Made by a program: the position numbers and the translations under genes. The notes below the pieces were generated by a model. It was not told the origin of the DNA, made no database searches, and saw only the letters and a list, made by a program, of their open reading frames with translations. This document shows, piece by piece, positions 2,645 through 62,681 of a stretch of DNA of 64,000 nt. Numbering within the stretch: position 1 is the first letter of the stretch; the number at the start of each line of letters is the position of its first letter. This stretch comes from Chiloscyllium plagiosum. Its lineage: Eukaryota. The stretch spans positions 33,266,715 through 33,330,714 of the forward strand of contig NC_057737.1 in the NCBI RefSeq assembly GCF_004010195.1. The letters are read 5' to 3'.

Positions 2645-2861
2645 TTGGGCAGGAGCAAGTGTTGGACCCGGGTAGATAAAGTTAAAAATCACACAACATC
2701 AGGTTATGGTCCAAAAGGTTTATTTGGAAACACAAGCTTTTGGACCGCTGCTCCTTCTTCAGGTGGTTGTCCTGAAGAAGGAGCAGCGCTCTGAAAGCTA
2801 GTGCTTCCAAATAAACCTGTTGGACTGTAATCTGGTATTGTGTGATTTTTTAACTTTGTCC
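2645..2861. mobile_element. Non-autonomous foldback element made of two tail-to-tail PLE family-B 3' ends
   Basis: 2677-2763 is the reverse complement of 2771-2858. Flanked by 12-bp TSD TTCCTGGTCATT (2633-2644 / 2862-2873). Arms match the 3' end of the PLE at 16020-16125. Confidence 0.88.
2769..2803 (+). ncRNA. Minimal hammerhead ribozyme motif (PLE family B)
   Basis: CUGAAGA-a-GGAGC-agc-GCUCU-GAAA-G-CUA-gug: catalytic core, helix II and a palindromic AGCU helix-III rudiment. Helix I is imperfect in this copy. Confidence 0.7.
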
Positions 2862-3741
2862 TTCCTGGTCATTATGGAGGCCCATTCAAAGTGATTGGAC
2901 ATGCATAAAGTTCATTTGGCAAACTTAGGGATGACAATTGAGAATCTGTGAGCACCATTTGCAATACACGGACTTCTGGGACCAATATGGGAGTATTGGT
3001 CACAGACAACGGGATGTCATTTGCCAACAGGGAATTTGAATATTTCCTAAAGTGCAATGGCATTTGTTACATAAGGACAGCTCCTTACCATCTATTTGTC
3101 CAATGGTCCAGTGGAAAGAACTGTTCAAACATTGAAGGCAGGCTTAAAGGAGCACCCCACATGCAACAATAGGGATTGCTCCAGCTGTGTTGCTAATGGG
3201 GAGAAGACTCCGGACCAGGCTAAGCCTGACATTTCTGGAGAGGGAAGCGTTAAACAGTAACAGGAATGCCAATGTCAATCACATGCCTCCTCTAAGCAAG
3301 AGAAACAGTTTAATTCAGGGGATGAATTTTGGTGCTGGAGCCCTGTGTGGGTTCAAAGCAAGGTTAACGTGAAGTCAGGTCCCATGACTTACAAGTTCAG
3401 GTAGATGATACTGTCCTGAACAAACACATGGATCACCTGAAAGCTATGATCTCTCAAATGTGGCAGAAGCAAAACATAACTGGCCCCTCAGAACATTCAG
3501 AAGGCTTGTCAAAAACTGTAGATTCTCCCCCTGCATCTAGTGTCGAGGAAACCTTTGAGTCCAAGATGGATGCATCCTATACCATCAATGCCAGAAGAAG
3601 AGGAGGATACCCTCCAGAGTTGCTCCAGATGCAAGAGATGGGCTACACTCTGGTACACGCCACCTGTGTCAGAGCCTGAATCAAAGGAACCGGACCAGGG
3701 GCTAAAACCTCACAGAAACCTTAAGGACTGATTCGGGATAG

Positions 3742-3831
3742 CTGAAAAATGTGTTGCTGGAAAAGCGCAGCAGGTCAGGCAGCATCCAAGGAGCAGGAGA
3801 ATCGTCGTTTCGGGCATAAGCACTTCTTCAG
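3742..3831 (-). mobile_element. 90-bp PLE family-C 3'-end fragment with hammerhead motif, inserted into the CR1
   Basis: 12-bp TSD GATTCGGGATAG (3730-3741 / 3832-3843). Matches 8370-8454 and 46697-46780. Confidence 0.88.
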
Positions 3832-4472
3832 GATTCGGGATAGTCAACATGGCTTTGTGCATGGGAAATCATGTCTCGCAAACTTGATTAAATTTTTTGA
3901 TGAAATAACAAAGAAGATTGATGAGGGCAGAGCAGGATATGTGATCTTTATGGACTTCAGTAAGGCATTCGACAAGGTTCCCCATGGGAGACTGATTAGC
4001 AAGGTTAGATCTCATGGAATGCAGGGAGAACTAGCCATTTGGATACAGAACTGGCTCAAAGGTAGAAGACAGAGGTGGTGGTGGAGGGTTGTTTTTCAGA
4101 CTGGAGGCCTGTGACCAGTGGATCGGTGCTGGGTCTTATACTTTTTGTCATTTACATAAATGATTTGGATGCGAGCATAAGAGGTACAGTTAGTAAGTTT
4201 GCAGATGACACCAAAGTTAGAGGTGTAGTGGACAGTGAAGAGGTTACCTCAGATTACAACAGGATCTGGACCAGACGGGCCAATGGGCTGAGAAGTGGCA
4301 GATGGAGTTTAATTCAGATAAATACAAGGTGCTGCATTTTGGGAAAGCAAATCTTAGCAGGACTTATACACTTAATGGTAAGGTCTTAGGGAGTGTTGCT
4401 GAACAAAGAAACCTTGGAGTGCAGGTTCATAGCTCCTTGAAAGTGGAGTCGCAGGTAGATAGGATAGTGAAG

Positions 4473-4611
4473 NNNNNNNNNNNNNNNNNNNNNNNNNNNN
4501 NNNNNNNNNNNNNNNNNNNNNNNNNNNNNNNNNNNNNNNNNNNNNNNNNNNNNNNNNNNNNNNNNNNNNNNNNNNNNNNNNNNNNNNNNNNNNNNNNNNN
4601 NNNNNNNNNNN
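4473..4611. other. Assembly gap (139 N) inside CR1
   Basis: Run of N. Confidence 0.99.
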
Positions 4612-4975
4612 TGGGTCGGAGAGTCCAGAACTAGAGGGCATAGGTTTAGGGTGAGAGGGGAAAGATATAAAAGAGACCTAAGGGGCAACGTTTTCACGCA
4701 GAGGGTGGTATGTGTATGGAATGAGCTGCCAGAGGATGTGGTGGAGGATGGTACAATTGCAACATTTAAGAGGCATTTGGATGGGTATATGAATAGGAAG
4801 GGTTTGGAGGGATATGGGCCGGGTGCTGGCAGGTGGGACTAGATTGGGTTGGGATATCTGGTCGGCATGGACGGGTTGGACTGAAGGGTCTGTTTCCATG
4901 CTGTACATCTCTATGACTCTAAATAGCTAAAAGAGAAAGATCAGGCCTATAACTCCAGACCTATCGGTTGAGAGA

Positions 4976-8206: not shown

Positions 8207-10871
8207 TGTTAGCAAGTTTTGAGAAGGTTTGCTGCTCGGGTTGAGGATCTAGATGTAAGTTTGCTCGCTGAGCTAGAAGGTTCGTTTTCAGTGGTTTCAT
8301 CACCTTGCTAAGTAGCATCATCAGTGAGGCAAAATTGAGGACTGCAGGTGCTAGAGGTTAAAGTCGAGCGTGTGGGGCTAGAAAAGTACAGCAGGTCAGA
8401 CAGCATCCGAGGAGCAGAGGAATCGACATTTCAGGCAAAAGCCCTTCATCAGGAATGAGGCTGTGAGCCAAAGGGCGGTGGGGCTGGGGGGAGGGTAGCT
8501 GAGAGTGTGACAGGTGGAGGAAAAGGTGATAGGTCAGAGAGGAGGATGTAGCGGATAGCTGGCAAGGAAGATGAACAGGTAGGACAGGTCATGAGAGCAG
8601 TGCTGAGATAGAAGATTAGAACTGGGATAAGTTGGGGGGGGGGGGAAATGAGGAAACTGGTGATATCCATATTGATGCCATGGAGTTGGAGGGTCTCGAG
8701 GCAGAAGATGAGACGTTCTTCCCCCAGGCATCGGGTGGTTAGGGAGTGGTGATGGATGAGGGGGAGTTGAAGTGTTTGGCCAATGGGGCGGTGGGGTTGC
8801 TTAGAGCGGGTGTCCCAGAGATGTTCATTGAAGCGCTCTGTGAGTAGGCATCCAGTCTCTCCTATGTAGAGAAGACCGCATTACATGCAATGGATACAGT
8901 AAATGACATGTGGAAGTGCAGGTAAAACTTTGATGGATATGCAAGGCTCCTTTGGGGCCTTGGACAGGGGTGAGGGGGGAGGTGTGGGCGCAGGCTTTGC
9001 AATTCTTTCGGTGGCAAGGGAAGGTGCCAGGAAGGGGGGGGGGGTGCTGTGCATCTGACGAGGGAGTCGTGGAAGGAATAGTCTTTGCGGAAAGTGGATA
9101 GGGTTAGGGAGGGAAATATATCCCTTGTGGTGGTGCCTGTTTGTAGGTGGAGGAAATGGCGGAGGATGATGCTATGGATATGGAGGTTGGTGGGGTGGCA
9201 GGTAAGGACGGGGGGTTCTGTACTTGTTGCGATTGGAAGGGTGGAGTTCAAGGGTGGAGGTGCGGGAAGTGGATAAGCTGCACTGGAGGGCATCATCAAG
9301 CAAGTGGGAGGGGAATCTGCGGTCTTTAAAGAAGGAGGCTATCTGGTGTTTTCTTTGGTGGAACTGGTCCTCCTGGGAGCAGATGCAGTGGAGGCGGAGG
9401 AATTGGGAATAAATGATAGCATTTTTACAGGAGGCAGGGTGGGAGGATGTGTAGTCCAGATAGCTATGGGAGGCAGTGGGTTTGTAGAAGATGTCAGTGT
9501 TGAGTTAGTCACCGTTGATGGAGATGGAGAGGTCCAGGAAGTGAAGGGAGGCGTCTGAGATGGTCTAGGTGAATTAAGGTCTGGATGGAATGTGTTAGTG
9601 AAGTTGATGAACTGTTCAACCTTCTCATGGAAGCATGAGGTGGCGCCGACACAGTCATCAGTGTAGCGGAGGAAAGGTTGGGGAATGGTGCTGGTGTAAC
9701 TGCTGAAGATGGACTGTTCCACAGGCAAAGCTGGGTCCCATGCAGGTGCCCATGGCTACCCCTTTCATCTGAAAGAAGTGGGAGGATTCAAAGGAGAAAT
9801 TATTGAGGGTGAGGACCAATTCAACCAAATGAATGAGAGTGTCAGTGGAAGGGTACTGGTGGGGACGTCGGGAGAGGAAGAAACAGATGGCTTGGAAGCC
9901 CTTATCATGGCAGATGGAGGTGTACAGGGACTGGATGTCCATGGTGAAGATGAGGTGTTGGGGGCCAGGGAAATAAAAGTCTTGGAGGAGGTGGAGGGTG
10001 TGGGTGGTGTTCCTGAACATATGTGGCGACCTGATATTTTAGAGTGTTGGTGAGTTCGTGGACCACCATGATGCCAAGAGGTCTGAGTAGTCTGGCAGTC
10101 ATCTCCGAGGTGTCTTTGTTATAGAGGAGAGTGGCTCGGGCTTCTGGGTGTGTTTTGTCTGCTTGTTTGGGTTTGTTGCTGAGAAATTGGCGGACTGTGT
10201 TCATTGGTACCTGTTTATTTTGAATGCGCTGTCTAGGTGATTCTCTTCTGCTCTTCATAGTTCCTCTGTGCTGCAGTGTATGGTGGCTCATTGAAATAAC
10301 GTTCTAATGCCTGCTAGACTACTCAGACCTCTTGGCCTCATGGTAATCAGCAACTAATGATTTGAAGGACCCTATACAGACAACAAGCAAAACTAATGTC
10401 ATTTACAAAATACCTTGCAAGAACTGTAACAAACACTGCATTGGACAAACGAGCAGTAAACCAGCCACCAGAATACATGAACATCAACTTGCCACAAAAA
10501 GACATGACCCACTCTCACGAGTATCCTTACGTATAGATGAGGAAGGACATCACTTCGACTGGGACAACACATCCATCCTAAAACAAGCCAAATAGAGACG
10601 AGTACGAGAATTTCTAGAAGCATAGCATTCCAACTGGAACTTTATCAACAAACATATTGACTCAGACCCCATTTACCAACCTCTGAGAAAAAGAAAAGGA
10701 AATGACATCACCACAGGAAATGATATCACCAACCCAAGGAAACCTGAATACATAAATAGAAAGCAGGTCACTAACACCAGTGTTTCACCAGAAGCTCGCT
10801 GATGGTGTTACTTAGTATGGTGACGAACCGTCGGAAAATGAACCTTCCAGCTCAGCGAGCAAACTTGCATC
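8207..10871. mobile_element. PLE family-A tail-to-tail insertion (minus arm 8207-8330 and 10025-10290; plus arm 10305-10871 with GIY-YIG), interrupted by a family-C PLE
   Basis: GIY-YIG peptide NVIYKIPCKNCNKHCIGQT...TRIHEH (10395-10483). Both ends are 3' ends of the element at 62570-62680 pointing outward. 9-bp near-TSD CTTCACAGA (8198-8206) / CTTCATAGA (10872-10880). Confidence 0.85.
8332..10017 (-). mobile_element. PLE family C, 5'-truncated (RT, GIY-YIG and hammerhead-bearing 3' end)
   Basis: Minus-strand RT motifs LIFTMDIQSLYTSI, FFQMKGVAMGTCMGPS and FLRYTDDCVG. Endonuclease HVIYCIHCM*CGLLYIGETG (~8850-8910). Hammerhead motif at 8424-8452. Confidence 0.9.
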
Positions 10872-11644
10872 CTTCATAGACTTGTTTAAGCTTACAGTAT
10901 ACCAGATCTCAATCCAAAAGTGGAACCCTCAGAGATATATTTAAGGTCTGAGAGGACAAATTAGTTCTTGCACAATGAAAAGACAGGACTGAAGATCTGA
11001 CATTCTTGTTAATTGTAACTAGTCGAAAGGGACTCAGAAAAAAACAAGATAAAGCCTGACTGGTAACCCTGTTTATGCCAGTTGACACCTATAATGTTTC
11101 GCAAGCCACTTCAATTGACAAACAACCAAATAAAGAGTGCTAGACAGGAAGTGTCTGACTGCAGGATTAAAAAGGAACTTGATTACAAAGTTAAAAAATG
11201 AAATGATTACTTTGCTGAGCATGGCTAATACTGGACAGCTAAAGAAAATGAAGGGAAGAACATAAGTCAGCAGAATCAACTGAGAAAATTTCGAAACAGA
11301 ACCAAACACCACATCATTCCACTCAGACGATATTGAAGGAAAAAACTGCTTACCACACGCAAGCCACAAGTGTAAAGAGACTGATTTTTAAAAAGTGACT
11401 AACAGGAAAAACTGTGAGCAAATGCATGAGAAGATTTGTTTGCATAATGGGTAACTTTTGATGTAAATGATAGTGCATGTATTTTTTTTACGAAGAGTGG
11501 GTTGTTTGATGAAAATTGTACCAATGTGCATCTGGCTTGCTATGGCCATGTGACCTCTGCTATTATGCACTCATTGCAGACAGCCATCTCACAAGCAGTT
11601 TTAATAAAGACTCAGTACAAGCCACATTGAACGTGTAACAGTAT

Positions 11645-11750
11645 GGTGAAAACAGATATTGTTGGAGAAACTCAGCAAATCTGGCAGCATCTGTGGGGAG
11701 AAAAGAGTTCCGGTGGCTCTTCATTAGAACAAGTTTCTGGTTTCTCTGCT
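11645..11750 (-). mobile_element. Short PLE family-D 3'-end fragment
   Basis: aaaacagatattgttggagaaactcagcaaatctggcagcatctgtgg is the reverse complement of 49070-49125 and resembles 33200-33237. Confidence 0.6.
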
Positions 11751-12320: not shown

Positions 12321-13374
12321 CTCAATTAATAAAGTTAAAAATCATACAATACCAGGTTATAATCCAAAAAGTTTATTTGGAAGTACAAACTTTCGAAGTG
12401 CTGTTCCTTCATCAAGTAGCTAGTGGGGCAGGATCATAGGACATAATTTATAGTAAAAGATGAGAGTGTCATACAACTGATGTGATGTATTGAATAAACC
12501 CAGGCTGCTGCCCTGGGCTTGACATGATTGCTCAAACTGTCAGGAAATGTGTAAATGCCAGATTCATCAACAGCACTTTCAAGTTAGAACAAAATATCAC
12601 CTGGTCACAACGCAACGCCATCTAAGCTCTCAAGACCAATCGCAACATCATCATCAAACCAGCAGACCAAAGAGGAGCTATTGTCATTCAGAATAGAATA
12701 GCCTACTGCAAGGAAGTATACTGACAACTAAACAACCAGGAACACTCCAGGCAATTACCAGCTGATCCAACCCAAGAACACACCTGTGAACTAAATACAT
12801 TGATCAAGACTTCTAATCCAGTCCTTCAAATTACCCTATGCACTTTCATCCCATGTACTTCTTACGTAGGGGACTTCTACTGCCTTCTGAACATGCGCAA
12901 AGCCAACACACCTGGACGTCCCATCGTATCAGGCAGTGGGACCCTGTGTGAGAACCTCTCTGGCTATGTCGAGGATATCTTGAAACCCATTGACCCATTG
13001 TACAGGGGACCTCCAGCTTCTGTCGCGACACTACAGAATTCTTACAGAGACTCAACACCCACGGACTGGTCAACCCAGGAACATTCCTTGTTACAACGGA
13101 TGTTTTGGCACTCTACACAAGCATCCCCCATGACAAAGGCATCGCTGCAACAGTCTGAGCACTCAGTACCAACAACTGCCAATCTCTAGGCACCATCCTA
13201 CAATTCATCCACTTCATCCTCGACCACAACGTCATCATCTTTGACAACCAGTTCTTCATCGAGAAAAGATGGAACAGCCATGGAGACCAAATTTGCATCC
13301 CAATATGCCAACATTTTCATGCACAAGTTTGAACAAGAATTCTTTGCTGCACAGCACCTCCAACCAATACTATA

Positions 13375-14306: not shown

Positions 14307-15384
14307 TACTCCAGATATATTGACTAAATTTTCTTACTCTGGACCCATGGTGAGGACTCACTGAAACAACTACACAGTGATATCAACAAGTTTCATCCCA
14401 CCATCAGACGTACCAGGGACTACTCTTTAGAATCAGTCTCATTCTTGGACACACACATCTCCATCAAGGACGGGCACCGCAGTACCTCACTCTACCGCAA
14501 GCCCACAGATAACCCCATGATGCTTCACTTCTCTAGTTTCCATCTTAAACATATTAAAATAGCCATCCCCTAGGGACAAGCCCTACACACACACAGGATC
14601 TGTTCAGATGAGGAAGAACACGACGGACACCTGAAGGTGCTGAAGGACGCCCTGATAAGAACAGAATATGATGCTCAACTCATCAATCACCAGTTCCGAT
14701 GTGCCACAGTGAGAAACTGTATGACCTCCTCAGGAGATGGACACAGGATACGATCGATAGAGTACCCTTCGTTGTCCAGTACTTCCCAGGAGCGGAGAAA
14801 CTACACCATGTTCTTCGCAGCCTGCAACACATTATTGATGAGGATAAGCACCTCACCAAGATCTTCTCTACGCTTCCACCTCTCACCTTTAAACAACCGC
14901 CAAACCTTAGACAGACCATTGTTATCAGCAAATTGCCCAGCCTTCAGAACAACATCAAACATAACACCATAAACCCTGTCATGGCAACCACTGCCAGACA
15001 TATAAGATTGTTGACTTGCAAACTACCATTACACATGGGGACACCATCCACCATGTGTGTGGCAGGTACTCTTGTGACTCAGCCAACCTTGTCTATCTCG
15101 TACAATGCAGGCAAGGATGCCCTGAGGCACAGTATGTTGACAAGACCAAGCAGACACTACGACAATGGATGAATAGACACCACATAACAATCACCAGACA
15201 AGATGTTCCCACCCAGTGGGGAACACTTCAGTGGTCAAGGACTTTCGGCCTCGGATCTTTAGGCAACTGTCATCCAAGGTGAACTTCGGGCCTCACAATG
15301 CAAACTGAGCAGAGGCTGATAGCCAAGTTCGATACCCATGAGGATGTCCTCAACTCGGATCTTGGGTTCATGCCATACCCACTA

Positions 15385-15655
15385 TACTATACACTTCACA
15401 CATAAACTTGCACAGAAGCACACATATACACACACATATACACATACTCTTACACACGATAACACTCACACAGACCCTCTCTCATGCACATGCTCTCAGA
15501 CACACACCGTCTCACCGGCACATACTCTGTCACACGCACACATGCACTCTATCAAGCACGTGCACACACACATGCTCTTTTCCCCCTCTTTCACACACAC
15601 AGGCACACGCAAACACTCTCACTCCCTCACACACACACACATATATATCTATATA
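15385..15655 (+). repeat. Degenerate (CA)n/(CT)n low-complexity tract in the PLE-B 3' region
   Basis: Visible CA-rich tract that produces spurious His/Thr ORFs. Confidence 0.9.
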
Positions 15656-16524
15656 TGTCAATGGGATGAATTTGTATTTGCAGATACATCTTATTTTGTC
15701 CAAAAGCACATTATCTGTCGGCAGTTTTTCCATGTTATATTTTATCATTCCATGTTACATTTTATCAATTCCTACTTTGGAGATAGTACCAATCTGACTC
15801 AAGGTTGGGATACAGACAGACTCTAACCTAACACCTTTAATGTATTGTCTGAGCTGAGATGTCACTTTTTAAAAAATAAAACCTCAAGTTATCTCGGGAA
15901 TGTGACTTGAAAGAAGTTCTGTGATTTACATATTATCAATCGAAACCTGCAACCCGCATCAGTTGTATGATTATTTGATCTTTTACTTTTAATTGCGTCC
16001 TATGATCCTGGACCACTAGCTACTTGACAAAAGAGCAGCGCTCCAAAAGCTTGTACTTCCAAATAAACCTGTTGGACTATAACCTGGTGTCATGTGATTT
16101 TTAATTTTGTCCAACCCAGTCCAACTTCATATCATCTCAATTAAAAAAGGATTGGATTCGCTATGCCTTCTTAACCACTTTAACCACCTATGCTGCTACG
16201 TTCAAGGAAGTATGGGCATTCACTCCAAAGTACCTTATTTCTGATACAGCTCTCAGTATTCTCCCTTGTTTATTCCTTAGCCTTACTTCACCTCCCAAGT
16301 GCATCATTTCACCTTTTTCTGGCTGGCTGTCCAATTGAATAGCCCATTGCTTTCTTTGTACTGTATACAGCTATTCTTCTCACTATCAACTGCACAGCCA
16401 TTTTTTTTTGTCAACTGCAAATTCCTCGATCATGCCCCTTTACATTAATATCTATATTAATAATATATACCAAAGATAGTTGGGAACCCTGCCAAAACAA
16501 AATTCATACACAAATATCAATAAT

Positions 16525-19206: not shown

Positions 19207-19429
19207 AGGTCAGGAGTTACACAACATCAGGTTATAATCGAACAGATTTATTTGAAATCATAGGCTTTCGGAGTGCTGCTCCTTTGTCAGATGAAGTCAC
19301 TCCACTTGATAAAGGAACAGTGCTCCGAAAGCTACTGGTTTCAAATAAACCTTTTAGACTATAACCTGGTGTCATGTAACTTCTGACATTGTCCACCCCA
19401 GTCCAATACCAGCACCTCCACATCATGAC
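19207..19429. mobile_element. Second foldback element of tail-to-tail PLE-B-like 3' ends
   Basis: 19209-19292 is the reverse complement of 19303-19388. 12-bp TSD AATTTTGTGTCA (19195-19206 / 19430-19441). Degenerate hammerhead motif on each strand. Confidence 0.88.
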
Positions 19430-19441
19430 AATTTTGTGTCA

Positions 19442-29560: not shown

Positions 29561-29721
29561 CTATGCTTTAAAATGACTATTCATATTATCAGAGAAATAT
29601 GTACAAATCTAGTTAGTGAGAAACTTCTTCAGTTTGCTTTAAAGAAATATGGAAACAGTATTTTTGGTACCAAATTTATATTGCATACAGACTTAGAAAT
29701 TTCAACTTTCTTACTCTTCAG

Positions 29722-37994: not shown

Positions 37995-38335
37995 ATAGCA
38001 TAAAGATGTACAGCACATTAACAGACCCTTCAGTCCAACTCACCCATGCTGACCAGATATCCTCACCCAATCTAGTCTCATTTGCCAGCACTTGGCCCAT
38101 ATCCCTGTAAACCCTTCAAATTCATATACCCATCCAGATGCCTTTTAAATGTTGCAATTGTAACAACCTCCACCACTTCCTCTGGCAGCTCATTCCATAC
38201 ATGCATCACCCTCTACTTGAAAAAGTTGCCCCTTAGGTCCCTTTTAAATTTTTCCCCTCACCCTAAACCACACCCTCTAGTTCTGGACTCCCCACCTTAG
38301 GAAAGAGGCATTGTTTATTTATCCTATCCATGCCC
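37995..38335 (-). mobile_element. CR1 3'-end fragment
   Basis: Matches 59095-59440. Confidence 0.85.
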
Positions 38336-38782
38336 GTAATATGCCACCTGCATATTAGCTTTTTTTGACTCATGCAGTAGAATCCATAAATCCCTCTGCA
38401 ATTTAGAGTTTCACACTTGTTCTCTCAGTAATTATCTGCATTTTTCTTTTTTCAGTCAAAGTAAACAACTTCACATTTTCCCAGTTATTCTGTATCTGCC
38501 AGATGTTTGCTCACTTATTCTACATCTGTCAACTCCTAAATCTTCTTCATAACATATTTTCTTACCTATCTGTGTCATTCACAAATTCAATTACCGTGCT
38601 TTTAATCTCCTCACTCACATCATTGATGTAAATTGTTAAAAACTGAGACACAGCAAAGGTATCTGCAGGATTTCACTGATCACATTTTGCCACCTATACA
38701 CACTTTATTTTCTGCCAACCAACCAATTTTCCATCCTTGCTAATATGTTAATCCCTGCACTTTACTCAATAGCCTTAGATGT

Positions 38783-39628
38783 CCCATTAGTCTGCATTTG
38801 GCCCCTATCTTGCTAAACCTTTCCTATCAATGTACCTGTCCAAGTGTCTTTTAAATATTGTAATTGAACTCACCTCTACCACTTAGTCTGGCAGCTTGTT
38901 CCATACATGCGTCACCCTATGTGAAAAAGTTGCAGCTCAGGTCTCATTTAAATCTTTCCCCTCTCACCTTAAACCTATGCCCTGTAGTTTTGGAATCCCT
39001 ATCCTGGGGAAAAGACCTCAATTATTCATCTTATCTGTGTCCGTCATGATTTTACAAACCTCTATAATGTCACCCCTAAGCTTCCTATGCACCAGGGAAA
39101 ATATTCCCAACCAATCAATCTTCTGCCTATAATTCAAACCTTCCTCAGTAACATTCTTGCAAATCTTTCTCACACCCTTTCCAGTTTAATACCATCCTCC
39201 CTATAGCAGGGTGACCAGAACTGTACATAGTAGTCCAAACGTGGCCTCACCAATGACTTGCACAGCTGTAACATGATATCCCAACTCCTGTGCTTAATGT
39301 TCCTCTGACTGATGAAGGCAAGCATGCCAAATGCCTTCTTCACCACTCTGTCTACCTGTGACCCAATTTTCAATGAACATTGTATTTGCACCTCTAGGTC
39401 AGTATGCTTGACAATACTCCCCAGGACCCCACCATTAATTGTATAAATCCTGTCCTGGTTTGCCTTATCAACATGCAACACTTTGCATTTATCAGCATTA
39501 AAATCCATCTGCCATTCCTCAGTCCACTGGCCCAGTTGATCAAGATCCTTTTAGATAACCTTCTTCAGTGTCCAGTATACCACCAATTTTGGTATCACCC
39601 ACAAACTTACTAACTAAGCCTCATTGAA
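38783..39628 (-). mobile_element. Intermediate-age CR1 RT/3' fragment
   Basis: MDFNADKCKVLHV...LVRPRLDYYVQFWSP (ORF 39170-39508). Confidence 0.85.
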
Positions 39629-39958
39629 ATCATTCATATCATAGAATCCCAATAGTATGGAAGCAGGCCAAATGGCCCAATGTGTCCACACTGACTCTCC
39701 AGAGAGCATCCCACCCCGACACACCCCTTTTTCCCTGTAACCCTACATTGGCCATATCCAATTCACCTAGTCTGCACATCTTTGGACTGTGGGAGGAAAC
39801 CAGAACACCTGGCGGAAACCAGAACACCTGGAGGAAACCCATACCGACATGGGGAGAACGTGTAAACTCCACATAGACAGTTGCCCGAGGGTAGAATTGA
39901 ACTTGGGTCCCTGGCACTGTGAGGTAGCAGTTCTGATCACTAAGCCACCTAGCCTCCC
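39629..39958 (-). mobile_element. HE1/V-SINE-type SINE with an internal 19-bp tandem duplication
   Basis: Same V-domain as 33677-33987. ggaaaccagaacacctgg is repeated at 39795-39831. Confidence 0.85.
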
Positions 39959-43700: not shown

Positions 43701-44418
43701 GCTGAACAAAAAGACCTTGGAGTGCAGGTTTATAGCTCCTTGAAGGTGGAGTCGCAGGTAGATAGGATAGTGAAGAAGGTGTTTGGTATGCTTTCCTTTA
43801 TTGGTCAGAGTATTGCGTACAGGAGTTGGGAGGTCATGTTGCGGCTATACAGGACATTGGTTAGGCCACTGTTGGAATATTGCGTGCAATCGTGTTCTCC
43901 TTCCTATCTGAAAGATGTTATGAAATTTGAAAGGGTTCAGAAAAGATTTACAAGGATGTTGCCAGGGTTGGAGGATTTGAGCTATAGGGAGAGGCTGAAC
44001 AGGCTGGGGCTGTTTTTCCTGGAGCATCGGAGGTTGAGGGGTGTCCTTCTAGAGGTTTACAAAATTATGAGGGGCATGGATAGGATAAATTGGCAAAGTC
44101 TTTTCCCTGGGATCGGGCAGTCCAGAACTAGAGGTTTAGGGTGAGAGGGGAAAGATATAACAGAGACCTAAGGGGCAACTTTTTCATGCAGAGGGTGGTA
44201 TGTGTATGGAATGAGCTGCCAGAGGATGTGGTAGAGGCTGGTACAATTGCAACATTTAAGAGGCATTTGGATGGGTATATGAATAGGAATGGTTTGGAGG
44301 GATATGGGCTGGGTGCTGGCAGGTCGGACTAGATTGGGTTGGGATATCTGGTCGGCATGGACAGGTTGGACCGAAGGGTCTGTTTCCATGCTGTACATCT
44401 CTATGACTCTATCTATGA
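40726..44418 (+). mobile_element. Near-full-length young CR1 LINE: ORF1 (SGNH esterase-like), ORF2 (APE endonuclease and RT) and 3' UTR; inactivated by a few stops and frameshifts
   Basis: ORF1 motifs GDSAVRG, FPGARIKDV, VHIGTN and DGLHLNWKG. APE motifs AITETW, LYYRPP, GDFNFP and SDHN. RT motifs PGNYRPVSLTS, GVPQG and KFADDTK. Tail CTCTATGACTCTATCTATGA. Confidence 0.96.
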
Positions 44419-44849: not shown

Positions 44850-46610
44850 TGAACAACAGCAACTTTATTTAGTACTTTTGAAGTAATAACAAATCCCAAG
44901 AAGAATCACAGGAGATTTATAAAGCAAAAATTGATACCAGGCTACCAAAGGAGATACTAAGAATTGACAAAACTTGGTCAAAGAGCATATATGAGGAAGT
45001 ATCTTAGAGATGGCTAGAGCAATCTCAAGTGAGAATTCAAAACACAGGACTTTTTAGCAACAGATAACACAACTGCCAACGTACAATGAATAAACTTAGG
45101 AATTCCCAAATATCTGGAATTAGAAGAAAGCAGATTAAAACTGTGATATTATTTAACCAGGAGGTATTCTAAGTCTGCTAGCACATGGATGATGAATGAA
45201 TGGGATTTGACGCAATTAAAGATGTGGGCAGCACAGTTTTGCATGACTTCAGGTTTATGGAAATTAGAATGGTGGATGCCAGGTAGAAGTACTTTAGAAT
45301 AACGAAGACTCAATTTAATAAAGGTACAATGAGTGTTTACAACAATAGGTTAAAGTAAGGCTGGATCTGAGATGATGTTATTGAGGTAGAATGTTGTGGG
45401 TTATGCTGGGGTATGTCAAGAATCTCAGAATTATAAAGTATCTTGCTTGAGCACACATTCAGCTACATTTAAACAGTTGAAGAAAATAAAGAAGTCAGTG
45501 TAAGAGTGCAACAGAGAATTGAAAGCTGTACATATTGAGGAAATATGAGCGTTTGAGGAAGATGCCATAATCTGTATTTCGGTGTGGTGCAACTGCAATA
45601 CATTAAGTTCAGACAAGTATTTGACATCTTGTGCAGTGATGTATGAGGAGGTAAATGGATAGGGAATATACTTCGCATGCTTGGACTGGAAAATATTGGG
45701 AGAAAGAGCAAAAGTAGAGGTGATGGGGGACAATCCAGTGACTGTAGCCATACCTGCCACAGTGTACATTGAGAAGAATTATCTCAATTTCTACCATATC
45801 TCTGCAGCAGTTCCTCTGGACAGTATCACAGGCTATCTATTATTAGTTGCTTCACAATAATCTTCCCTATATCAGAAAGTAAGAAGTGAGTCTGTACACT
45901 AATATTTGCAGCGTTCAGCTTTAGACTGTGGTCTATCCTCCAGGTCTGGTGAAACCAGTCTGGGATTATAGGTGGGGAGACATCAGTCCAGGAGATGGAC
46001 TGCGGTCAGTCATGGCTGTCTTGCTAAAATGTCCTGTGTTTTGAATTCTCTCTTGTGATTGTCTAGCCATCTCTAAGATACTTCCTCATGTATGGCTCTT
46101 TGACCAAGTTTTGTCAATTCTTAGTATCTCCTTTGTTAGCCTGGTATCAATTTTTGCTTTATAAATCTCCTGTGATGCTTCTTGGGATTTGTTATTACTT
46201 TAAAAGGGGTGGGTTATGATCAGTCTTGGAGATTTGTTCACTAATTGTCAAGAAGCAGGCCATAGGCAGTGAGCAACTTTAAATCTGAGGATTGGCTTCA
46301 TTGTGCTGGGTCACTGAGGGAATGGTGATAGTGGACAATTGGGGATTGTAAGGTAGGAGCTCACAGTGAATGAGAGGGGATGGAAAGTTATGGAAGTGAA
46401 GTTCACACAGGTCATGGTGACTGTGAACTGTACTTAGGTAGCGTGTAGAGGCTACAAGGACCTGGGTCCTTGTAGTTATAGGTGCTCGGGATAATGTTGG
46501 GACATTGATTCAGACATGAATGAATAATAGTAACTGAAACAGAGGTAAAATTGAAAGGTCATAGGGGCCACAGGGACAGCCACTTGAAAGGGAACATAAA
46601 AGTTCGGGGG
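44850..46610 (-). mobile_element. Old L2-like LINE remnants (44850-45400 and 46206-46610) with intervening rearranged sequence
   Basis: L2-type 3'-end text at 44855-44915. The intervening 45500-45920 is a + strand RT fragment (ISAAVPLDS...). Confidence 0.45.
44876..46206. repeat. ~190-bp inverted repeat (44876-45060 vs 46021-46206)
   Basis: Direct reverse-complement match with few mismatches, e.g. ACAGGAGATTTATAAAGCAAAAATTGATACCAGGCTA / TAGCCTGGTATCAATTTTTGCTTTATAAATCTCCTGT. Confidence 0.92.
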
Positions 46611-46688
46611 GAGTTTTGTTCATGACAGGCAGTGTCTGCAAAGTCATTCATACAAGCAAAGTTGGAATCTTGATCTGTTGAAACAAAA

Positions 46689-46814
46689 CTGAAAACTGTG
46701 TTGCTGGAAAAGCGCAGCAGGTCAGGCAGCATCCAAGGAACAGGAGGATCGACGTTTCGGGCATAAGCCCTTCTTCAGGAATGATCTTCAGCATCTGCAG
46801 TCCTCACTTTCTCC
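46689..46814 (-). mobile_element. PLE family-C 3'-end insertion with inverted terminal piece
   Basis: TSD CTGTTGAAACAAAA / CTGTTGAATCAAAA (46675-46688 / 46815-46828). 46788-46814 is the element terminus in the opposite orientation. Confidence 0.85.
46747..46782 (-). ncRNA. Best-preserved minimal hammerhead ribozyme motif (PLE family C)
   Basis: Minus strand: uuc-CUGAAGA-a-GGGC-uuau-GCCC-GAAA-C-GUC-gau. Intact core, 4-bp helix II, GUC triplet and palindromic ACGU. Confidence 0.78.
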
Positions 46815-48934: not shown

Positions 48935-49655
48935 GCAGGTGCAAAAACCAAATGGTACGTTGGCCTTCATAGCAAAAGAATGAGTATAGGAACAGGAATG
49001 TCTTGCTGCAGGGCCTTGGTGAAACCAGCCTGAGGAAGGGTCACTTGTCCCAAGACATTAGCTCTGATCTCTGTCCAGAGATGCTGCCAGATCTGCTGAG
49101 CTTTTTCCAGCAATTTCTGTTTTTGTTTCTGGAGTGTTGTGCGATTTTGAATTCTTTATCTGAGAAGGATGTTCTGGCTATGGGAGGGAGTACAACAAAG
49201 ATATACCAGTCTGATAACTGAAATAGCAGGATGGATACATGAAGAGAGACTGGATAGGTTAGGACTACATTCACTGCAGTTTAGAAGAATGAGGGAGGAT
49301 TTAATAGAAACCTATAAAATTCAAACAGGATTAGACAGGGAAAACTTGGGAAGGATGTTCCCGATGACTGGAGGAGTCCAAAGCCACAAATCACAGTTTA
49401 AGAAAACAGATAGACCATTTAGAACTAAGAGGAGGAGAAATTACTTGACCTAGAGAGAGTCACAGAAAGCTGGTTAGGCCAAACGTTGAATGTTTTCAAG
49501 AAGGAGTTAGTTATATAGTTCTTAGGACTAAAGAAATCAAAAGAATTGGGGAGAAAGCAGAACAGGATAAGGAGTTGATGAGCCACGATCATAATGAACA
49601 GTGGAGCTGGCTCAAAGGGTTGAATATCCAACTTCAGTTCCTATTTTCTATGAAA
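48935..49655 (+). mobile_element. Old CR1 3' portion, interrupted by a PLE-D fragment at ~49029-49128
   Basis: GVQQRYTSLI...ERLDRLGLHSLQFRRMREDLIETYKI. The insert carries a degenerate CTGAGGA-a-GGGTC hammerhead remnant. Confidence 0.8.
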
Positions 49656-54291: not shown

Positions 54292-54825
54292 ACTTTGCTC
54301 AAGTAGTACTTTTGAGCAAAGTACTACTTTTGTACTTTGCTCAAAAACTGCACGCATTCATGTAGAACTCTGAGCTCAAAAACTGCATGAATTTATGTAA
54401 AACTCCGTTATCTCACTTTCTAGATTAGAATCAATCTAAACATCATGGCATAGACAGAGAACACAGGGGGCCAACACCTTCAACATATTGTCTAGCTATC
54501 ACCATTGTTAACAGCTAACCCGAGAATGCAACTTTTTAAAAAAAAGGTTTTGTGATTTACACATGAAAGAAGTGAAACTATCACTGTATTCTAACAGATG
54601 AAAGGCTTAACAGACAATCAATTTTTCAATGTATAATTTCAGTTACATCACACTGTAAATTTTTGCTATAAATTCTGTGTGTTAGGATTGAGCCCTGCAC
54701 TATCACCTGATGAAGGAGTGTCGCTCCAAAGGCTAGTGTGCTTCCAATTAAACCTGTTGGACTATAACCTGGTGTTGTGTGGTTTTTAACTTTGTACACC
54801 CCAGTTCAACACCGGCATCTCCAAA
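54292..54825 (+). mobile_element. PLE family-B-related 3' fragment inserted in a probable minus-strand solo LTR (~54140-55660)
   Basis: 12-bp TSD TTAAGAATTACT (54280-54291 / 54826-54837). 3' end matches 16020-16125. Hammerhead remnant cacCTGATGAaGGAG...CTCC at 54704-54738. Confidence 0.85.
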
Positions 54826-56845
54826 TTAAGAATTACTGTTAGTTACAAGTAAATAGACTCTAGCTGTACGAAAACAACAATGAACCATATGAATTATGAA
54901 CATAAGTTGAAACTCTAACCCCCTTATGAACTCCCCTTTACACATATACGCAGACAGAAAACAAAATAATGGGTGTTACAGATAGAGGGAAAATTGAGAA
55001 AACAGTTCAGTGGTCTCAATTTAGAGAATGTGCTGAGATGATTCTTGTGCTAATCAGAACACTGCTGCTTGACCTTTCTTCTCTGGATACTTTTGCTGAT
55101 TTGCAGGAGATACCAGATGGTTGCTTCACACGTATAAAAGATCTCTGACCAATTAATTAAAAGTTACAGTTTACAGCAACTGCTAATGAAAAAGAACTGG
55201 TTTTCTTCAAGTTTAAAGTAGCTTTTACTACAGAGAACAGAGAGCTCTCCTAAGCTGGTGGAGGTCTGATAGGTTCTCACAGCCCTGTTCACAGTCCCCC
55301 GCTGTTCAGCTTCCTGAGAATTAATTATCTATTTGTTTACAGGCTGATGGCTTTTGTCATCAATACTTGGTCACTTGTCCACGTGCCAATCAGCAACTTG
55401 TTGCTGGCTGAAATTTGTACACAATCGTCAGCTTCAGCTTATCTGCAAACTACACTTCAAATATTGCCTGAACAAATAGGTGTGTAAATGTTGCTTCGAC
55501 ATGAAAAAGAAGAAAATGGCACTTAGAATGAATGTCAGGTTATTTGCTTTTTAAATCTGCAGTAATCCTTCAGCAAGCCTTCATTGTTAAGACCGTTCTT
55601 TTCCCATTGCCCACAGTTGACAGTACAGAAAAACGAAATGACAATCTTTCAACATGCCCCACCTTACTTTCAATTAGTGCCTGATTTAGTGCCCTTTCAT
55701 CAAGGTGGCTAATATCTTGCACTGGGGTGTTAATAACCAAGTGTAGGAGGAAGCACTTACTAAAGTACTATAATTTGCAATGTTGTTGAGGCACAAGCCA
55801 GCTTATTAAGAAAAATAAGAATTAATGTTTTGTGAAACTATGATTTTTTCCATACGAAAATGTAGTACCAGAAAAGTAGGATAATGGTGAATATGAGGAA
55901 GACCTCAAAAACTTAGATTAATTGCTATTTCGCCAATCTCAGTCATATCAATATCTTTTACTGTTTCACAATAAATTGAACAAGAATCAAGAACCAAAGC
56001 CTTGTGTGAAGTTATAAAGTCACACATGACCTGGTGTTCTTACAATAACGATGTACACTGTTAGTGTGCAAACAGAGTATCATAGCACAAACTCAAACAT
56101 ATTTTAAACAATTCACTTATATTCCTCCCACTCTAAAACAAATACTTTTCCAAGAGGATTGCTAAATCATTATGGAGGCACTGCACAGTTAGAGCAGAAC
56201 TTTTGCGTCCCTGCAGTTGTGTTCTTCACCCGATAAGGAAATATTTTCTTCTCATTCTGTAACCAAGAAGCAAATGTTGTGGACTACATATTTTGTGGTG
56301 AAAAAAGTCAGCTTATGCAGAAGAGATGCCTGAAAAATTTTGCATATTTGCTATCTTCTATTTGGATTGCAATGTAAGTATTGATGTCGTGTTGTATAGT
56401 ATGACCTCCAGGGGATCTTCTTGAAGGGATTTGAAATAGTATACCCAAATCACCCCTTAAAGATCTGTCCACCAGGATCAGAAGTACTTCCTAATGTGAT
56501 AATACATATACACAAAGCAACTTCTCAGCCTTTCGTTTTATATATGTTAGATGTTAGCCTTTAGATGTTGCTAAATTGTTTATGGCTAAGTAGTATTGTG
56601 TACTGACAGCTGCTTGCATGTACAGTATTTAAAGTTACATGGAAATTTTTATTTGGTCTTTGAAATTCCTGATAGTTGTTTAATATTAAGGTGAATTGAA
56701 ATGAACTTTAAAACTGATTATAATGAAGAGTGCAATTAAAACAGTCAATTAACACTTATATAGTGGAGACCATTTGGTAGATAAGGACACTGTTTCATGT
56801 TTTAATGGTGTTAGGCTTTCTAAATTAACATCTTCATTCTTGCAG

Positions 56846-57941: not shown

Positions 57942-58189
57942 ATATATCACCACCTTGGACAGGGAAAAATGTTGTGCACCAAAGATATTATTTGCCAAAT
58001 AAATAGCCCTGAACAGGAAGTTCTGTGATTGAATTTTGAAGTGTTTAAAGGAAATGTTCATGTAAATCTAAAATGATACCCTGCCAATGCGACTATGTAT
58101 GACAATACCACTTAGTCGGGACAGAGTCTTAATGAGAATGGCTCTTTGGAATCATAGAAAGCAATGATACCATTGAAGCAAGATCTATA

Positions 58190-58462: not shown

Positions 58463-58464
58463 TC

Positions 58465-61400
58465 TGCTCCCTGGAGAAAAACATAAAATTTCTATTGGCG
58501 CAATACACTAAAGCTGGCCCGAAAATGGGAAACGAATGCCATCCAACAGAGCGCAACCTGCAAAAAGCTGTACTTCCTGCACGAATGCCTAAGAAAACAG
58601 GTACTACTTAAATGTCTCAAATACAAACCTCCCCTCAACACTCCACTAACTAAATGAATAGCAGAGCAAAACGGCCACAAAATGCTTAGAGAAATGATTA
58701 ATGATGCCCACAACAGACTCCATAAATACAACCGGGAAATTTTGCACCAAAATATTTACTCACTTATGCAACAGACCATGAATGGACAAACCAAAGATGC
58801 AACAAACCAAAGATTTTAGATAGTGACAAACACAGAAAATGTAAAAAACTAGATCTGCAGAAAAAAAAACTAGACAAACTTAGACAAAGTAACAACACTG
58901 ACAACACAGAAGCAGGGATAAAAAAAGCTTATCTGACCGACCCTTAACAACTGAAAAGGCCATCTTCATAAGAAGATTAAATTACAACTTCCAGGATGCA
59001 GACAAGAAAATTTCTTAGCAGCTTTAGAAACAACACTAAAAGACAACCAACTTACAGAAGAAACCCAGCAAACTATCAGATAGGTAGTCATAGAGTCATT
59101 GAGATGTACAGCATGGAAATAGACCCTTCGGTCCAACTCATCCATGCCAACCAGATATCCCAACCCAATCTGGTCCCACTTGCCAGCACCCGGCCCATAT
59201 CCCTCCAAACCATTCCTACTCATATACCCATCCAAATGTCTCTTAAATGTTGCAATTGTACTAGCCTCCACCACTGTCTTTGGCAGCTCATTCCATACAC
59301 GTACCACCGTCTGTGTGAAAAAGTTGTCGATTAGGTCTCTTTTATATCTTTCCCCTCTCCACCCTAAATCTTTGCCCTTTAGTTCTGGACTCCCCCACCC
59401 CAGCGAAAAGACTTTGCCTATTTACTCTATCCATACCCCTCATAATTTTGTAAACCTCTATAAGGTCCTCCCTCCAGGAAAACAGCCTCAGCCTGTACAG
59501 CCTCTCCCTATAGCTCAAATCCTCCAACCCTGACAACATCCTTAAAAATCTTTTCTGAACCCTTTCAGGTTTCACAACATCTTTCCGATAGGAAGGACAC
59601 CAGATCTGCACGCAATATTCCAACAGTGGCCTAGCCAATGTCCTGCACAGCTGCAACATGACCTCCCAACTCCTGTACTCAGTACTCTGACCAATAAACG
59701 AAAGCATACCATACGACTTCTTCACTCTCCTATCTACCTGCGACTCCACTTTCAAGGAGCTATGAACCTGCACTGCAAGGTCTCTTTGTTCAGCAACACT
59801 CCCTAGGACGTTACCATTAAGTGTATAAGTCTTGCTAATATTTGCTTTCCCAAAATGCAGCATCTCGCATTTATCTGAATTAAACTCCATCTGCCACTTC
59901 TCAGCCCATTGGTCCATCTGGTCAAGATCCAGTTGTAATCTGAGGTTCCCCGCTTCGATGTCCACTACACCTCCAATTTTGGTGTCATCTGAAAACTTAC
60001 TAACTGTACCTCTTATGCTCGCATCCAAATCATTTATGTAAATGACAAAAAGTAGAGGACCCAGCACCAATCCTTGTCGCACTCCACTGGTCACATGCCT
60101 CCCGTCTGAAAAACAACCCTCCACCACCACCCTCTGTCTTCTACCTTCGAGCCAGTTCTGTATCCAAATGGCTAGTTCTCCCTGTATTCCGTGAGATCTA
60201 ACCTTGCTTATCCGTCTCCCATGAGGAGCCTTACTGAAGTCCATATAGATCACATCTACTGCTTTGCCCTCATCAATCCTCTTTGTTACTTCCTCAGAAA
60301 ACTCAATCAAGTTTGTGAGACATGATTTCCCATACACAAAGCCATGTTGACTATCCCTAATCAGTCCTTGCCTTTCCAAATACATCATTTCCCTCAGGAT
60401 TCCCTCCAACAACTTGCCCACTACTGATGTCAGGCTCACTGGTCTATAGTTCCCTGGCTTGTCCTTACCACCCTTCTTAAACAGTGGCACCACATTAGCC
60501 AACCTCCAGTCTTCCGGCACATCACCTGTGACTATCGATGATACAAATATATCAGCAAGAGGCCAAGCAATGACTTCTCTAGCTTCCCACAGAATTCTAG
60601 GGTACACCTGATCAGGTCCTGGGAATTTATCCACCTTTACCCATTTCAAGACATCCAGCACTTCCTCCTCTGTAATCTGGACATTTTTCAAGATGTCACC
60701 ATCTATTCCCCTACAGTCTATATCTTCCATATCCTTCTCCACAGTAAATACTGATGCAAAATACTCATTTAGTATCTCCCCCACATTAAGCAGGAAAAAG
60801 GCAATAGACTCAATACACAAGAAAGGAAAGCACTGGAAAGACTATAAAAAATCCTACCTGCAGACAAAGGATGCTTGACAGTAATTTTAAATCAAAGAGA
60901 CTACGGTGAAAAAGTGAATGCACTACTTGCAGTTACCAACACTTACCTACAAGTGGCGATTGACCCGACCTCACAACTAGAGAACCGAATCACAGCCTAC
61001 TCAAAAAACTTCAGAAATCTGGAGAAATAAATAAGACCAACTTCCAAAAAATGAAACCAGATGGATACAACACACCACACTTCTACGGATTACCCAAAAT
61101 ACACAAACCAGGAGCCCCCCCTCAGACCCATTGTCTCGCTACTTACAGATTGGAGCACCAACTTACAGATTGGCCAAAGAGTTATGCCAAAGACTAAAAC
61201 ACTTAGTAGAAGACTCACGCCACTTCATCCACTCCACCCAAGAATTCCTGAAGACCATCAAAGACACCAAGATAGAAGAGAATGAAATAATGGTCTCCTT
61301 TGAAATAACAGCCCTGTTTACATCCATCAACATCAACCTGACCAAGGAAACACTGACTACATTATTAGAAGACCCAAAGATACATACACCAAACACCACC

Positions 61401-62681
61401 AACTTCATCAGCAAGGACAGTATCGTCAAGCTAGTGGACCTATGACTTACCACCCACTTCACCTTCATCAACAAAACTTACAGACAAACCAATGGAGCAC
61501 TCATGGGATCTCTGATATCAGGATTCTTAGCAGAGGCAGTAATGCAGAGACTTGAACAAACAGCTCTGCCAACTATCCAACGCAAACTTAGGGTCCACTA
61601 AGGTGATGACATCTTTGTCGTCACTAAACAGAAACAAATTAGAGAAAACCTTCAAAACCATCAATAATACCCTTACTGTCATAAAATTCACTAAAGAGGA
61701 GGAAAACAACAACAAACTGCCATTCCTAGATGTCACAGTAGAGCCAACAGCCAACGTGGAACTTCAAACCGGCGCCTACAGGAAAAGAACACATATAGAC
61801 CAAATATTGAACTACAGAAGCAATCATCCCAACATCCACAAATGAAGCTCCATCAGAACATTACTTCAACTAACTACCACACACTGCAGCACAGAGGAAC
61901 TATACAAAGGCAGAGAAAAATTACCTATACAGTGTATTCAAAAAGAATGGGTACCCAATGAACACAGTCTCATGATTTCTCAGCAACAAACCCAAGCAAG
62001 CAGACAAAATGCATTCAGAAACCCCTAGCCACTTTCCCCTACATCAAATACATTTCGGAAATGACTGCTAGACTACTCAGACCCCTTGGCATCATGGTCA
62101 CCCACAAACCCACCAACACACTAAAACAGCAGCTAATGAACTTGAAAGAACCTATACAGACAACAGGCAAAACTAATGTCATTTACAAAATATCGTGGAA
62201 GAACTGTAACAAACACTATTTTGGACAAACGGACAGAAAACTAGCCACCAGGATACATGAACATCAACTAGTCACAAAGCGACGTGATCCTCTCACTAGT
62301 ATCCTTACATACAGATAAGGAAGGACACCACTTCGACTAGGGCAACACATCCATCCTAGGACAAGCTTCTAGGACGAGAATTCCTAGAAGCATGGCATTT
62401 CAACCGGGACTCTATCAACAATCACTATCTATCACTCCCTGAGAAAAAGAACAGGAAATGACATCACTATAGGAAATGATGTCACCACAAGAAATAACAT
62501 CACCAACCCAAGGAAACCCAAACATATAAATAGAAAGCAGGAATCATCAGCAGTGCTTCATCTGGAGGCTCACTGAAGGTGTTACCTTGTATGGTGACAA
62601 AACGTCTGTAAATGAACCTTTCAGCTCAGTGAGCAAACCAACATCCAGAACCTCAACCTGAGCTATAAATCTTCTCAAAAT
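58465..62681 (+). mobile_element. Near-full-length PLE family A (N-terminal domain, RT and GIY-YIG), decayed, split by a CR1
   Basis: N-terminus LKLARKWETN...FLHECLRKQVL. RT motifs FYGLPKIHKP, PLRPIVS, MVSFEITALFTSI, QTNGALMGS and KLPFLDVTV. Endonuclease NVIYKISWKNCNKHYFGQTDRKLATRIHEH. Mutated hammerhead at 62570-62608. Confidence 0.92.
59087..60783 (-). mobile_element. Young 5'-truncated CR1 LINE with a long open RT frame, inserted in PLE-A
   Basis: ORF 59342-60820(-), 492 aa, with full CR1 RT motifs. Nearly identical to 42707-44410. Confidence 0.96.

Follow-up and report, generated by a model that had tools for sequence, protein, structure and literature searches.

What does a gathering of hammerhead ribozyme motifs mean in a shark chromosome? 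What the hammerhead does for Penelope-like elements (PLEs) can be approached statistically, from the points at which copies start, in a genome with hundreds of thousands of copies. The window analysed here, a stretch of 64,000 nucleotides from Chiloscyllium plagiosum (contig NC_057737.1, positions 33,266,715 to 33,330,714), contains 19 hammerhead-like sites listed by an initial annotation. We conclude that it is not special and holds ordinary, mostly mutated leftovers of four Penelope-type families. In full, we estimate at roughly 0.8 the probability that four PLE families with a minimal hammerhead in their terminal repeat left the sites as 5'-truncated and mostly mutated insertions, with a life cycle as proposed below.

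Family profiles, each built from 29 other genomic copies, recovered every one of the 19 sites (5 in A, 8 in B, 4 in C and 2 in D) at E-values of 2.6e-11 or better, and also matched a core-less C piece (31575-31633) and D/C tail pieces (33069-33241). Each listed site belongs to one of four families of dispersed repeats, and in every family the majority sequence forms a minimal type I hammerhead motif with predicted cleavage (Table 1). The patterns first described for A, B and C are the same as the majority sequences of genomic copies, and helix III is indeed a palindrome in these sequences (ACGU in A, C and D; AGCU in B). Family D had been called degenerate, which does not hold for the family majority: helix II there has 5 bp, the NUH triplet is GUU, and helix I pairs AGUU with AACU over 4 bp. 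Nor do the families end in their hammerhead, as homology extends ~95-140 nt beyond the first core base. The CUGANGA, GAAA and NUH core is present in the family majority sequences, and 4 of the 19 single window copies keep all core bases. Helix II, 4-6 bp long across families, has G10.1-C11.1 as its closing pair and a single extra base following A9 (U in family A, A in B, C and D), as observed in 57/57 descriptor matches from 120 slices and in the family alignments. An Rfam scan returned no hammerhead match at E up to 5. Judged by these sequence features, the motif is the already described min-HHR of Cervera and De la Peña 2014.

Table 1. Penelope-like copies and hammerhead motifs in the window.
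Family	Feature	Positions	Strand	Remarks
B	Head-to-head pair, cores 2762 (-) and 2772 (+)	2645-2861	both	12-bp target duplication at 2633 and 2862
C	Stub beginning at first core base, NUH mutated	3742-3831	-	12-bp target duplication at 3730 and 3832
A	Stub, motif 8288-8327, GUC lost	8209-8329	-	
C	Element remnant (Neptune-like): broken RT, Cys linker, GIY-YIG, 3' UTR, hammerhead, tail	8370-10030	-	Hammerhead 8421-8456 (-), helix III U.G
A	3' fragment (Poseidon-like), 5' part inverted; motif 10796-10835, A9 mutated	10031-10872	+	
D	Stub, heavily degenerate	11649-11730	-	
B	Copy, core at 12415 mutated	12329-12497	-	TATA-like box 37 nt upstream
B	3' end (Neptune-like): last ORF codons, CA-rich UTR, mutated core 16024, tail	15301-16125	+	
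B	Head-to-head pair, cores 19290 (-) and 19306 (+)	19207-19429	both	12-bp target duplication at 19195 and 19430; G8 mutated in both cores
A	Inverted pair	26551-27523	both	Minus arm: core split by insertion (26693-26625); plus arm: motif 27445-27484, descriptor match, helix III U.G
B	Stub, mutated core at 29248	29165-29258	-	
C	Tail piece without CUGA half	31575-31633	-	Profile match; absent from the earlier list
C	Copy, helix II and NUH mutated	36586-36676	+	TATA-like box 38 nt upstream of core
C	Whole stub: hammerhead and tail, inverted tail piece at 5' end	46683-46814	-	8-bp target duplication at 46675 and 46815
C	Minimal hammerhead, sole fully intact one in the window	46747-46782	-	Predicted cut between 46751 and 46750; helix I of 2 bp, then U.U mismatch, then 1 bp
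D	Stub (Neptune-like), GAAA and NUH mutated	49026-49131	+	
B	3' UTR, motif 54704-54738 (G12, A15.1 mutated), tail	54330-54830	+	TATA-like box 40 nt upstream
A	Element remnant: broken RT and GIY-YIG, motif 62570-62609 (A9, G12 mutated), tail	60900-62680	+	TATA-like box 48 nt upstream of core

Family alignments bear out the fold by covariation, helix I showing double-sided changes between subfamilies in A and in C/D. In a set made of the copies nearest their subfamily majority, with controls that ignore relatedness and with the misaligned family B omitted, the A pair 2.3:1.3 reads UA in four, CG in three and GC in three of 10 copies, and 4 of the 10 C/D pairs are altered on both sides among 13 copies. 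All four families lie downstream of GIY-YIG endonuclease remnants. Family A is linked to RVT_1 (E 2.6e-12, locus L043) and to GIY-YIG at four loci (E 4e-4 to 0.02), and family C to RVT_1 (9e-4) and GIY-YIG (2e-3 and 6e-3), the Pfam GIY-YIG scores being near or below the curated cut-off except at one locus; the endonucleases of B and D resemble that of C (35% and 46% identity). At the level of predicted domains, the EN+ Penelope-like architecture, with an RT and then a C-terminal GIY-YIG upstream of the repeat, holds for A and C, while the endonuclease of B and D is assigned by similarity to C and their RT linkage is not certain. The Cys-rich linker CX2-5CxxC, which marks the Neptune clade when placed between RT and EN (PMC8557442), was found in B (L069), C (L205 and the window copy) and D (one locus, L299); family A has no Cys linker, and its ORF starts within the pLTR at helix II. 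These motifs, and not a tree, suggest the labels Poseidon-like for A and Neptune-like for B, C and D. The copies also show the truncated 5' ends, inverted 5' arms, partial tandems and tail expected of EN+ PLEs, together with target duplications. The original proposal of minimal type I hammerheads in Penelope-like pseudo-LTRs is supported for all four families by ORF linkage and helix I covariation. Among 30 frames of the window, Pfam detected only CR1-type LINE domains, in five of them, the PLE remnants being too broken; a 225-aa frame (29620-30297) had no PDB or Atlas match, and no host gene was identified. A CR1-type LINE piece also adjoins the C stub at 3742-3831 (-).

The descriptor search did detect hammerheads, with 3 matches in the window against 1 in 40 shuffled windows, and these three (27448+, 8452- and 46778-) are the only fits among the 19 sites, far from the announced "about 15" copies of the full motif. 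Two of them carry a helix III U.G from CpG decay, leaving 46747-46782 (-) as the only one with a Watson-Crick helix III; 2772+ keeps all core bases with helix I down to 1 bp, and the remaining window copies have lost core bases. The suggestion of an unusually dense locus did not hold either: judged by 120 other slices, 16.5 hammerhead-covering copies are expected where the window has 18, a number attained in 35% of resampled slice sets. It is the family mix that departs from expectation: A (4 copies where 1.1 are expected) and B (8 where 2.9 are) exceed it, and C (4 against 9.9) and D (2 against 2.7) fall short. Because core and tail change alike at non-CpG positions (42/654 and 187/2938, respectively; Fisher p 0.93), the copies decay neutrally, the core as fast as the tail. 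No same-family, same-strand pair occurs within 1.5 kb in the window; neighbours at this distance lie only on opposite strands and therefore place no double hammerhead in one transcript. Across 40 slices, 20 of 25 same-family neighbour pairs were likewise opposite-stranded. The copies in the window probably do nothing, and the hammerhead motif would likely be kept by selection in active master elements only.

The start points of the copies bear on the RNA from which they were made. Among 170 C copies, 75 have their 5' end at -10 to +3, 9 at -55 to -16 and 6 at +27 to +30, near the predicted cut, flanked by 4 at +22 to +26 and 7 at +31 to +37. The main group spreads over ~14 nt, with a shoulder to +9, and not on one base; simulated uniform truncation produced no such peak (24 true and 29 inferred ends of 175 at -10 to +3). 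The 5'-end result for B comes from 39 copies and 7 references, and D was excluded, its analysis being biased. The C pile-up lies ~30 nt below a TATA-like box, itself weak (TTTTATCT in young copies), and such a box was found at -31 to -38 in 10 of 14 long D copies and at -37 to -48 in 5 of 8 long window copies. Since stubs retain the whole core, the short copies were likely copied from uncut RNA, and the front edge of the motif likely marks where this RNA starts.

We propose that RNA synthesis in B, C and D would begin 4-8 nt upstream of CUGA, at a promoter of the TATA/initiator type. Priming by the element's reverse transcriptase would take place within the tail, ~95-140 nt further downstream, as has been demonstrated in vitro for PAc, an element of the anole (PMC11167929); from a start on the 5' repeat the enzyme would run off at the RNA 5' end, leaving a stub composed of hammerhead and tail. 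The predicted cleavage would be slow, proceeding as a double hammerhead or assisted by the element's protein, and its effect would be to shorten or inactivate the RNA and not to ready it for insertion. Activity of min-HHR in vitro is low (PMC4209133), and PAc insertion does not need cleavage (PMC11167929). We give slightly less than even odds to a wider reading in which, for the three Neptune-like families, the first hammerhead strand would be the very start of a TATA/initiator transcript, ~0.8 million stubs would record insertion from uncut RNA, the ribozyme would serve as a brake or decapping switch instead of making the template, and the genome would hold more intact minimal hammerheads (~100,000) than the published counts compared here. 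Single-cell poly(A) reads on locus L166 numbered 2038 in one run, on both strands and mostly 90-95% alike, with none in the other run; they do not pile up at the predicted cut (1864/1865), an end that such a library cannot map. Nine near-identical C loci, located next to assembly gaps, were not accepted as proof of current activity.

The same elements and motif could instead acquire their 5'-end pile-up at the insertion step, by nicking near ATT, fold-back priming or an RT stop at structure, and not from the RNA 5' end; this is the alternative we weigh most, though we consider it unlikely. The PAc endonuclease favours 5'-ATT-3' (PMC11167929) and C has ATT at -4 to -2, but D has AGTT and B no ATT there. 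The scatter of 5' ends over 14 nt and the prevalence of opposite-stranded neighbours are also compatible with it, and palindromic junctions of such kind have been read as self-priming (PMC3846280). However, the TATA-like box that B, C and D carry ~30 nt upstream points to an RNA start, and a structural stop would be expected where the enzyme first encounters the hairpin, at its 3' side.

It is improbable that the short copies form a separate non-autonomous retrozyme family, spreading via circular RNA from two hammerhead cuts. Elsewhere (L139 and 12 more of 30 loci), two near-intact C hammerheads do lie 270-380 nt from each other on one strand, and retrozymes are reported to average 363 bp in one chondrichthyan (bioRxiv 10.64898/2026.07.22.740005). 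Yet in the 30 loci the inter-repeat junction varies by locus and sometimes runs into the ORF start, as expected of partial PLE tandems; no array exceeds three units in these loci, which yielded no non-coding fixed-unit tandem array with a hammerhead per unit, as non-LTR retrozymes have, and few of the C copies analysed begin near the cut site. The natural tandem pairs could serve in assays. Folding of L139 gave -78.4 for the double hammerhead against a minimum of -95.6, a cost of 17 kcal/mol in a model without tertiary energy and accordingly weak. A functional cluster of host-co-opted ribozymes, acting alone or in mixed dimers to process a transcript of the host, is hardly credible, for the one intact motif (46747-46782), the two near-intact ones and the related copies in single-cell RNA reads of both strands are outweighed by typical density, the 16 of 19 copies failing the descriptor, tail-like decay of the core, missing same-family tandems, and helix I strands that differ between families, so that the C and A neighbours 8452/8324, 128 nt apart on the same strand, cannot pair them.

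The preferred reading, truncated insertions of hammerhead-bearing PLEs, finds its counterparts in known systems. Our literature search, which most subscription papers lay outside, found no shark-specific study of hammerheads in Penelope elements. Family A is like PAc, the Poseidon element of Anolis carolinensis (PMC11167929): its ORF starts in the hammerhead, at an AUG made of A9, the extra U and G10.1 in 17 of 19 loci read, and its predicted cut lies 28 nt after the A, compared with 26 in PAc, with tails similar in length. In family A the motif likewise contains the end of the preceding ORF: the stop is the core UGA in 6 loci and, in a shifted frame, a loop II UAG in 2, while the PAc paper makes no mention of "stop codon". 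Families B, C and D differ from PAc in being Neptune-like, with A as extra base. Animal non-LTR retrozymes (PMC7229834; bioRxiv 10.64898/2026.07.22.740005) share a PLE origin, hammerheads of type I and repeats, a few hundred bases long, on the same strand, whereas the families described here have minimal motifs, coding members and partial tandems with variable junctions. With the min-HHR of metazoan PLEs as presented in PMC4209133, the motifs share the type I core, the extra nucleotide between 9 and 10.1, G10.1-C11.1, a palindromic 15.2-16.2 without loop 3, a short helix I, and several families per genome, mostly as single dispersed copies with some opposite-strand pairs; helix II, of 4-6 bp here, is shorter than the 7-8 bp of Schistosoma. 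In scale, intact motifs extrapolate genome-wide to ~130,000 (97,000-172,000), or 55,000 if helix I needs 3 bp, against ~4,000 in the coelacanth and 9,000 in Xenopus tropicalis counted with a different descriptor (PMC4209133).

The hammerhead motifs of the window are real, their locus is ordinary, and the four Penelope-like element (PLE) families carrying them, A to D, are new members of a known motif class. The 3.56 Gb genome was searched with one window copy per family, and profiles built from 30 aligned loci per family, without the window's own copy, recovered 19/19 of the sites assigned to these families by the initial annotation (A 5, B 8, C 4, D 2), together with a few extra tail pieces. 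The family majority sequences of these alignments are minimal type I hammerheads. Taken as individual motif copies, the listed sites stood only in part: three fitted a descriptor comprising the full core, a helix II of at least 4 bp, a palindromic helix III and a helix I of at least 2 bp (3 window sites vs 1 match in 40 shuffled windows), while the other 16 failed, in most cases because of core point mutations, many of which affect CpG sites. An Rfam search of the window returned no hammerhead match.

Majority hammerheads of the four families, and coordinates of features in the window and at other loci of these families (L numbers, own coordinates)
Feature	Position	Strand	Detail
Family A majority			UCA, CUGAAGA, U, 6-bp helix II, GAAA, C, GUC, UGA
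Family B majority			CAC, CUGAUGA, A, GGAGC/GCUCC, GAAA, G, CUA, GUG
Family C majority			AUUC, CUGAAGA or CUGAUGA, A, GGGC/GCCC, GAAA, C, GUC, GAUU or GAAU
Family D majority			AGUU, CUGAGGA, A, GGGUC/GACCC, GAAA, C, GUU, AACU
Descriptor match	window 46747-46782	minus	only one of the three window matches with Watson-Crick helix III
Split family A core	window 26656-26693		splitting insertion contains a 14-bp tandem duplication
C/A neighbours	window 8452 and 8324	same strand	helix I strands unmatched; A copy without GUC
Family C element	window 8370-10030		broken RT, Cys linker, GIY-YIG; confirmed by related loci
Subfamilies absent from window	L045:1010-1076, L140:5249-5315, L159:9481-9547, L129:4815-4881		helix I and II letters changed
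Double C hammerhead	L139:2200-2640	minus	two intact motifs on one strand, 334 nt apart; natural double-hammerhead substrate
Nine C loci	L166-L173, L175 (about 1495-1960)		0-5/336 bases differ; common start base after assembly gap
CR1-type LINE copies	window 40904-44412, 59090-60841, 3832-4921, 37999-39950		about 90% alike; esterase-like, endonuclease and RT domains
Open frame in CR1-type LINE copy	window 59342-60841		499 codons
Inverted repeat	window 44875-45060 and 46021-46206		187 bp, 95% identity, about 1 kb apart
Open frame	window 29620-30297	plus	225 codons; no Pfam, PDB or Atlas match

Covariation, whose lack in the alignments would have spoken against these motif families, is present in A and in C/D, under controls that ignore relatedness. 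When 404 copies were clustered into subfamilies, the majority sequences changed letters and kept their helices. Scoring was performed on the real copies nearest their own subfamily majority, family B being left out as misaligned. In family A, pair 2.3:1.3 was UA in 4/10, CG in 3/10 and GC in 3/10 copies, for a score of 0.246 (0/500 shuffles as high, relatedness being ignored by this control). Both-sided changes affected 4/10 pairs in 13 C/D copies, with a score of 0.406 (0/500 shuffles as high, slid controls at most 0.14, relatedness being left in by both).

The hammerheads are linked to PLE reading frames. In family A loci, RVT_1 (E 2.6e-12) and GIY-YIG matches lie upstream of the hammerhead on its own strand and no Cys linker was found; judged on these motifs, this family is Poseidon-like. 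The Cys linker of family C is also present in B and D, and the endonucleases of B and D align to that of C at 35% and 46%, respectively. This linker is described as a Neptune trait in PMC8557442, and B, C and D may be called Neptune-like, a label drawn from the motif rather than from a tree. Target duplications of 8-12 bp were observed at 4/8 insertion sites checked, and inverted 5' arms occur among insertions. Family sequence continues 95-140 nt beyond the first core base, placing the hammerhead near the 3' end and not at it, as the initial annotation had proposed by describing families ending in the ribozyme.

The supposedly unusual density of the locus dissolved upon sampling of 120 slices of 10 kb at round coordinates on large contigs (1,150,733 called bases). 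These held 297 hammerhead-covering copies (258 per Mb), and the window's 18 copies, vs 16.5 expected, were reached by 35% of resampled sets. The slices contained 57 descriptor matches, 50 of them with a Watson-Crick helix III, including 21 with helix I of at least 3 bp. Scaled to 3.0 Gb, this represents about 130,000 (97,000-172,000) intact motifs, 55,000 meeting both helix requirements; the total number of copies extrapolates to about 0.8 million. In the first 40 slices and the window, excluding clusters below 10 copies and two clusters with a CpG-lost majority, differences from the subfamily majority were as frequent in the non-CpG core (42/654 cells) as in the tail (187/2938; p 0.93). Genomic copies are thus without detectable selection, unlike lineage majorities, which are under selection.

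Copy 5' ends, mapped with tail-only profiles and hence independently of the hammerhead, cluster at its upstream edge. Among the 170 family C copies whose tails scored at least 70 (from 201 mapped), counting from the first core base, 23 extended past -56, 9 ended at -55..-16, 4 at -15..-11, 75 at -10..+3, 20 at +4..+9, 18 at +10..+26, 6 at +27..+30 (predicted cut at +28) and 14 beyond +30, with one outside these bins. Simulated uniform truncation was recovered without a peak at -10..+3, and a smaller family B sample followed the same trend (16/39 at -10..+3, 2/39 at -55..-16); family D was left out. The commonest C ends were -4 and -3. In C and D, position -4 holds the A within TCATTC or TCAGTT, a setting that we take to fit the initiator consensus. 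TATA-like boxes occur at -31..-38 in 10/14 long D copies and at -37..-48 in 5/8 long window copies. Earlier reports describe a TATA box with initiator in a rotifer pseudo-LTR (PMC3846280), an internal, TATA-less promoter in Drosophila Penelope (PMC2377424), and, in vitro, internal priming in the tail with insertion from uncut RNA (PMC11167929). A promoter would sit upstream of the motif, reverse transcription would prime internally, and the template would be uncut RNA; we infer that the stubs, short copies with hammerhead and tail, are run-off copies of its 5' end.

Cleavage itself may be slow and dimeric or protein-assisted, as published work indicates (PMC4209133, PMC11167929). Within the window, same-family neighbours at most 1.5 kb apart comprise only two head-to-head B pairs. 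Outside it, near-intact C hammerheads form same-strand pairs 270-380 nt apart in 13/30 loci, with variable junctions, and constitute natural test substrates for cleavage. In computed folding, the nested double hammerhead of L139 lies 17 kcal/mol above the minimum fold. The nine near-identical C loci reflect a very recent burst or an artefact of gap filling. Elsewhere in the window, the 187-bp inverted repeat is possibly a DNA transposon, and the 225-codon frame possibly a host exon.

According to PMC4209133, the motif class, its pseudo-LTR location, several families per genome and opposite-strand pairs were already known. No shark-specific study of Penelope hammerheads was found in the literature searched, of which supplements may list such families, and a retrozyme preprint covers a single chondrichthyan (bioRxiv 10.64898/2026.07.22.740005). 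In family A, the endonuclease frame stops at the core UGA in six loci (L033, L038, L043, L045, L050, L051) and passes the core to stop in loop II in two others (L042, L059), the stop within the core probably reflecting tight packing. The core could be anchored in 19/30 family A loci; the frame from A9 starts with Met in 17/19 of these and continues as a family-wide peptide. In having a frame that starts within the hammerhead, family A is like PAc, the Poseidon element of Anolis carolinensis.
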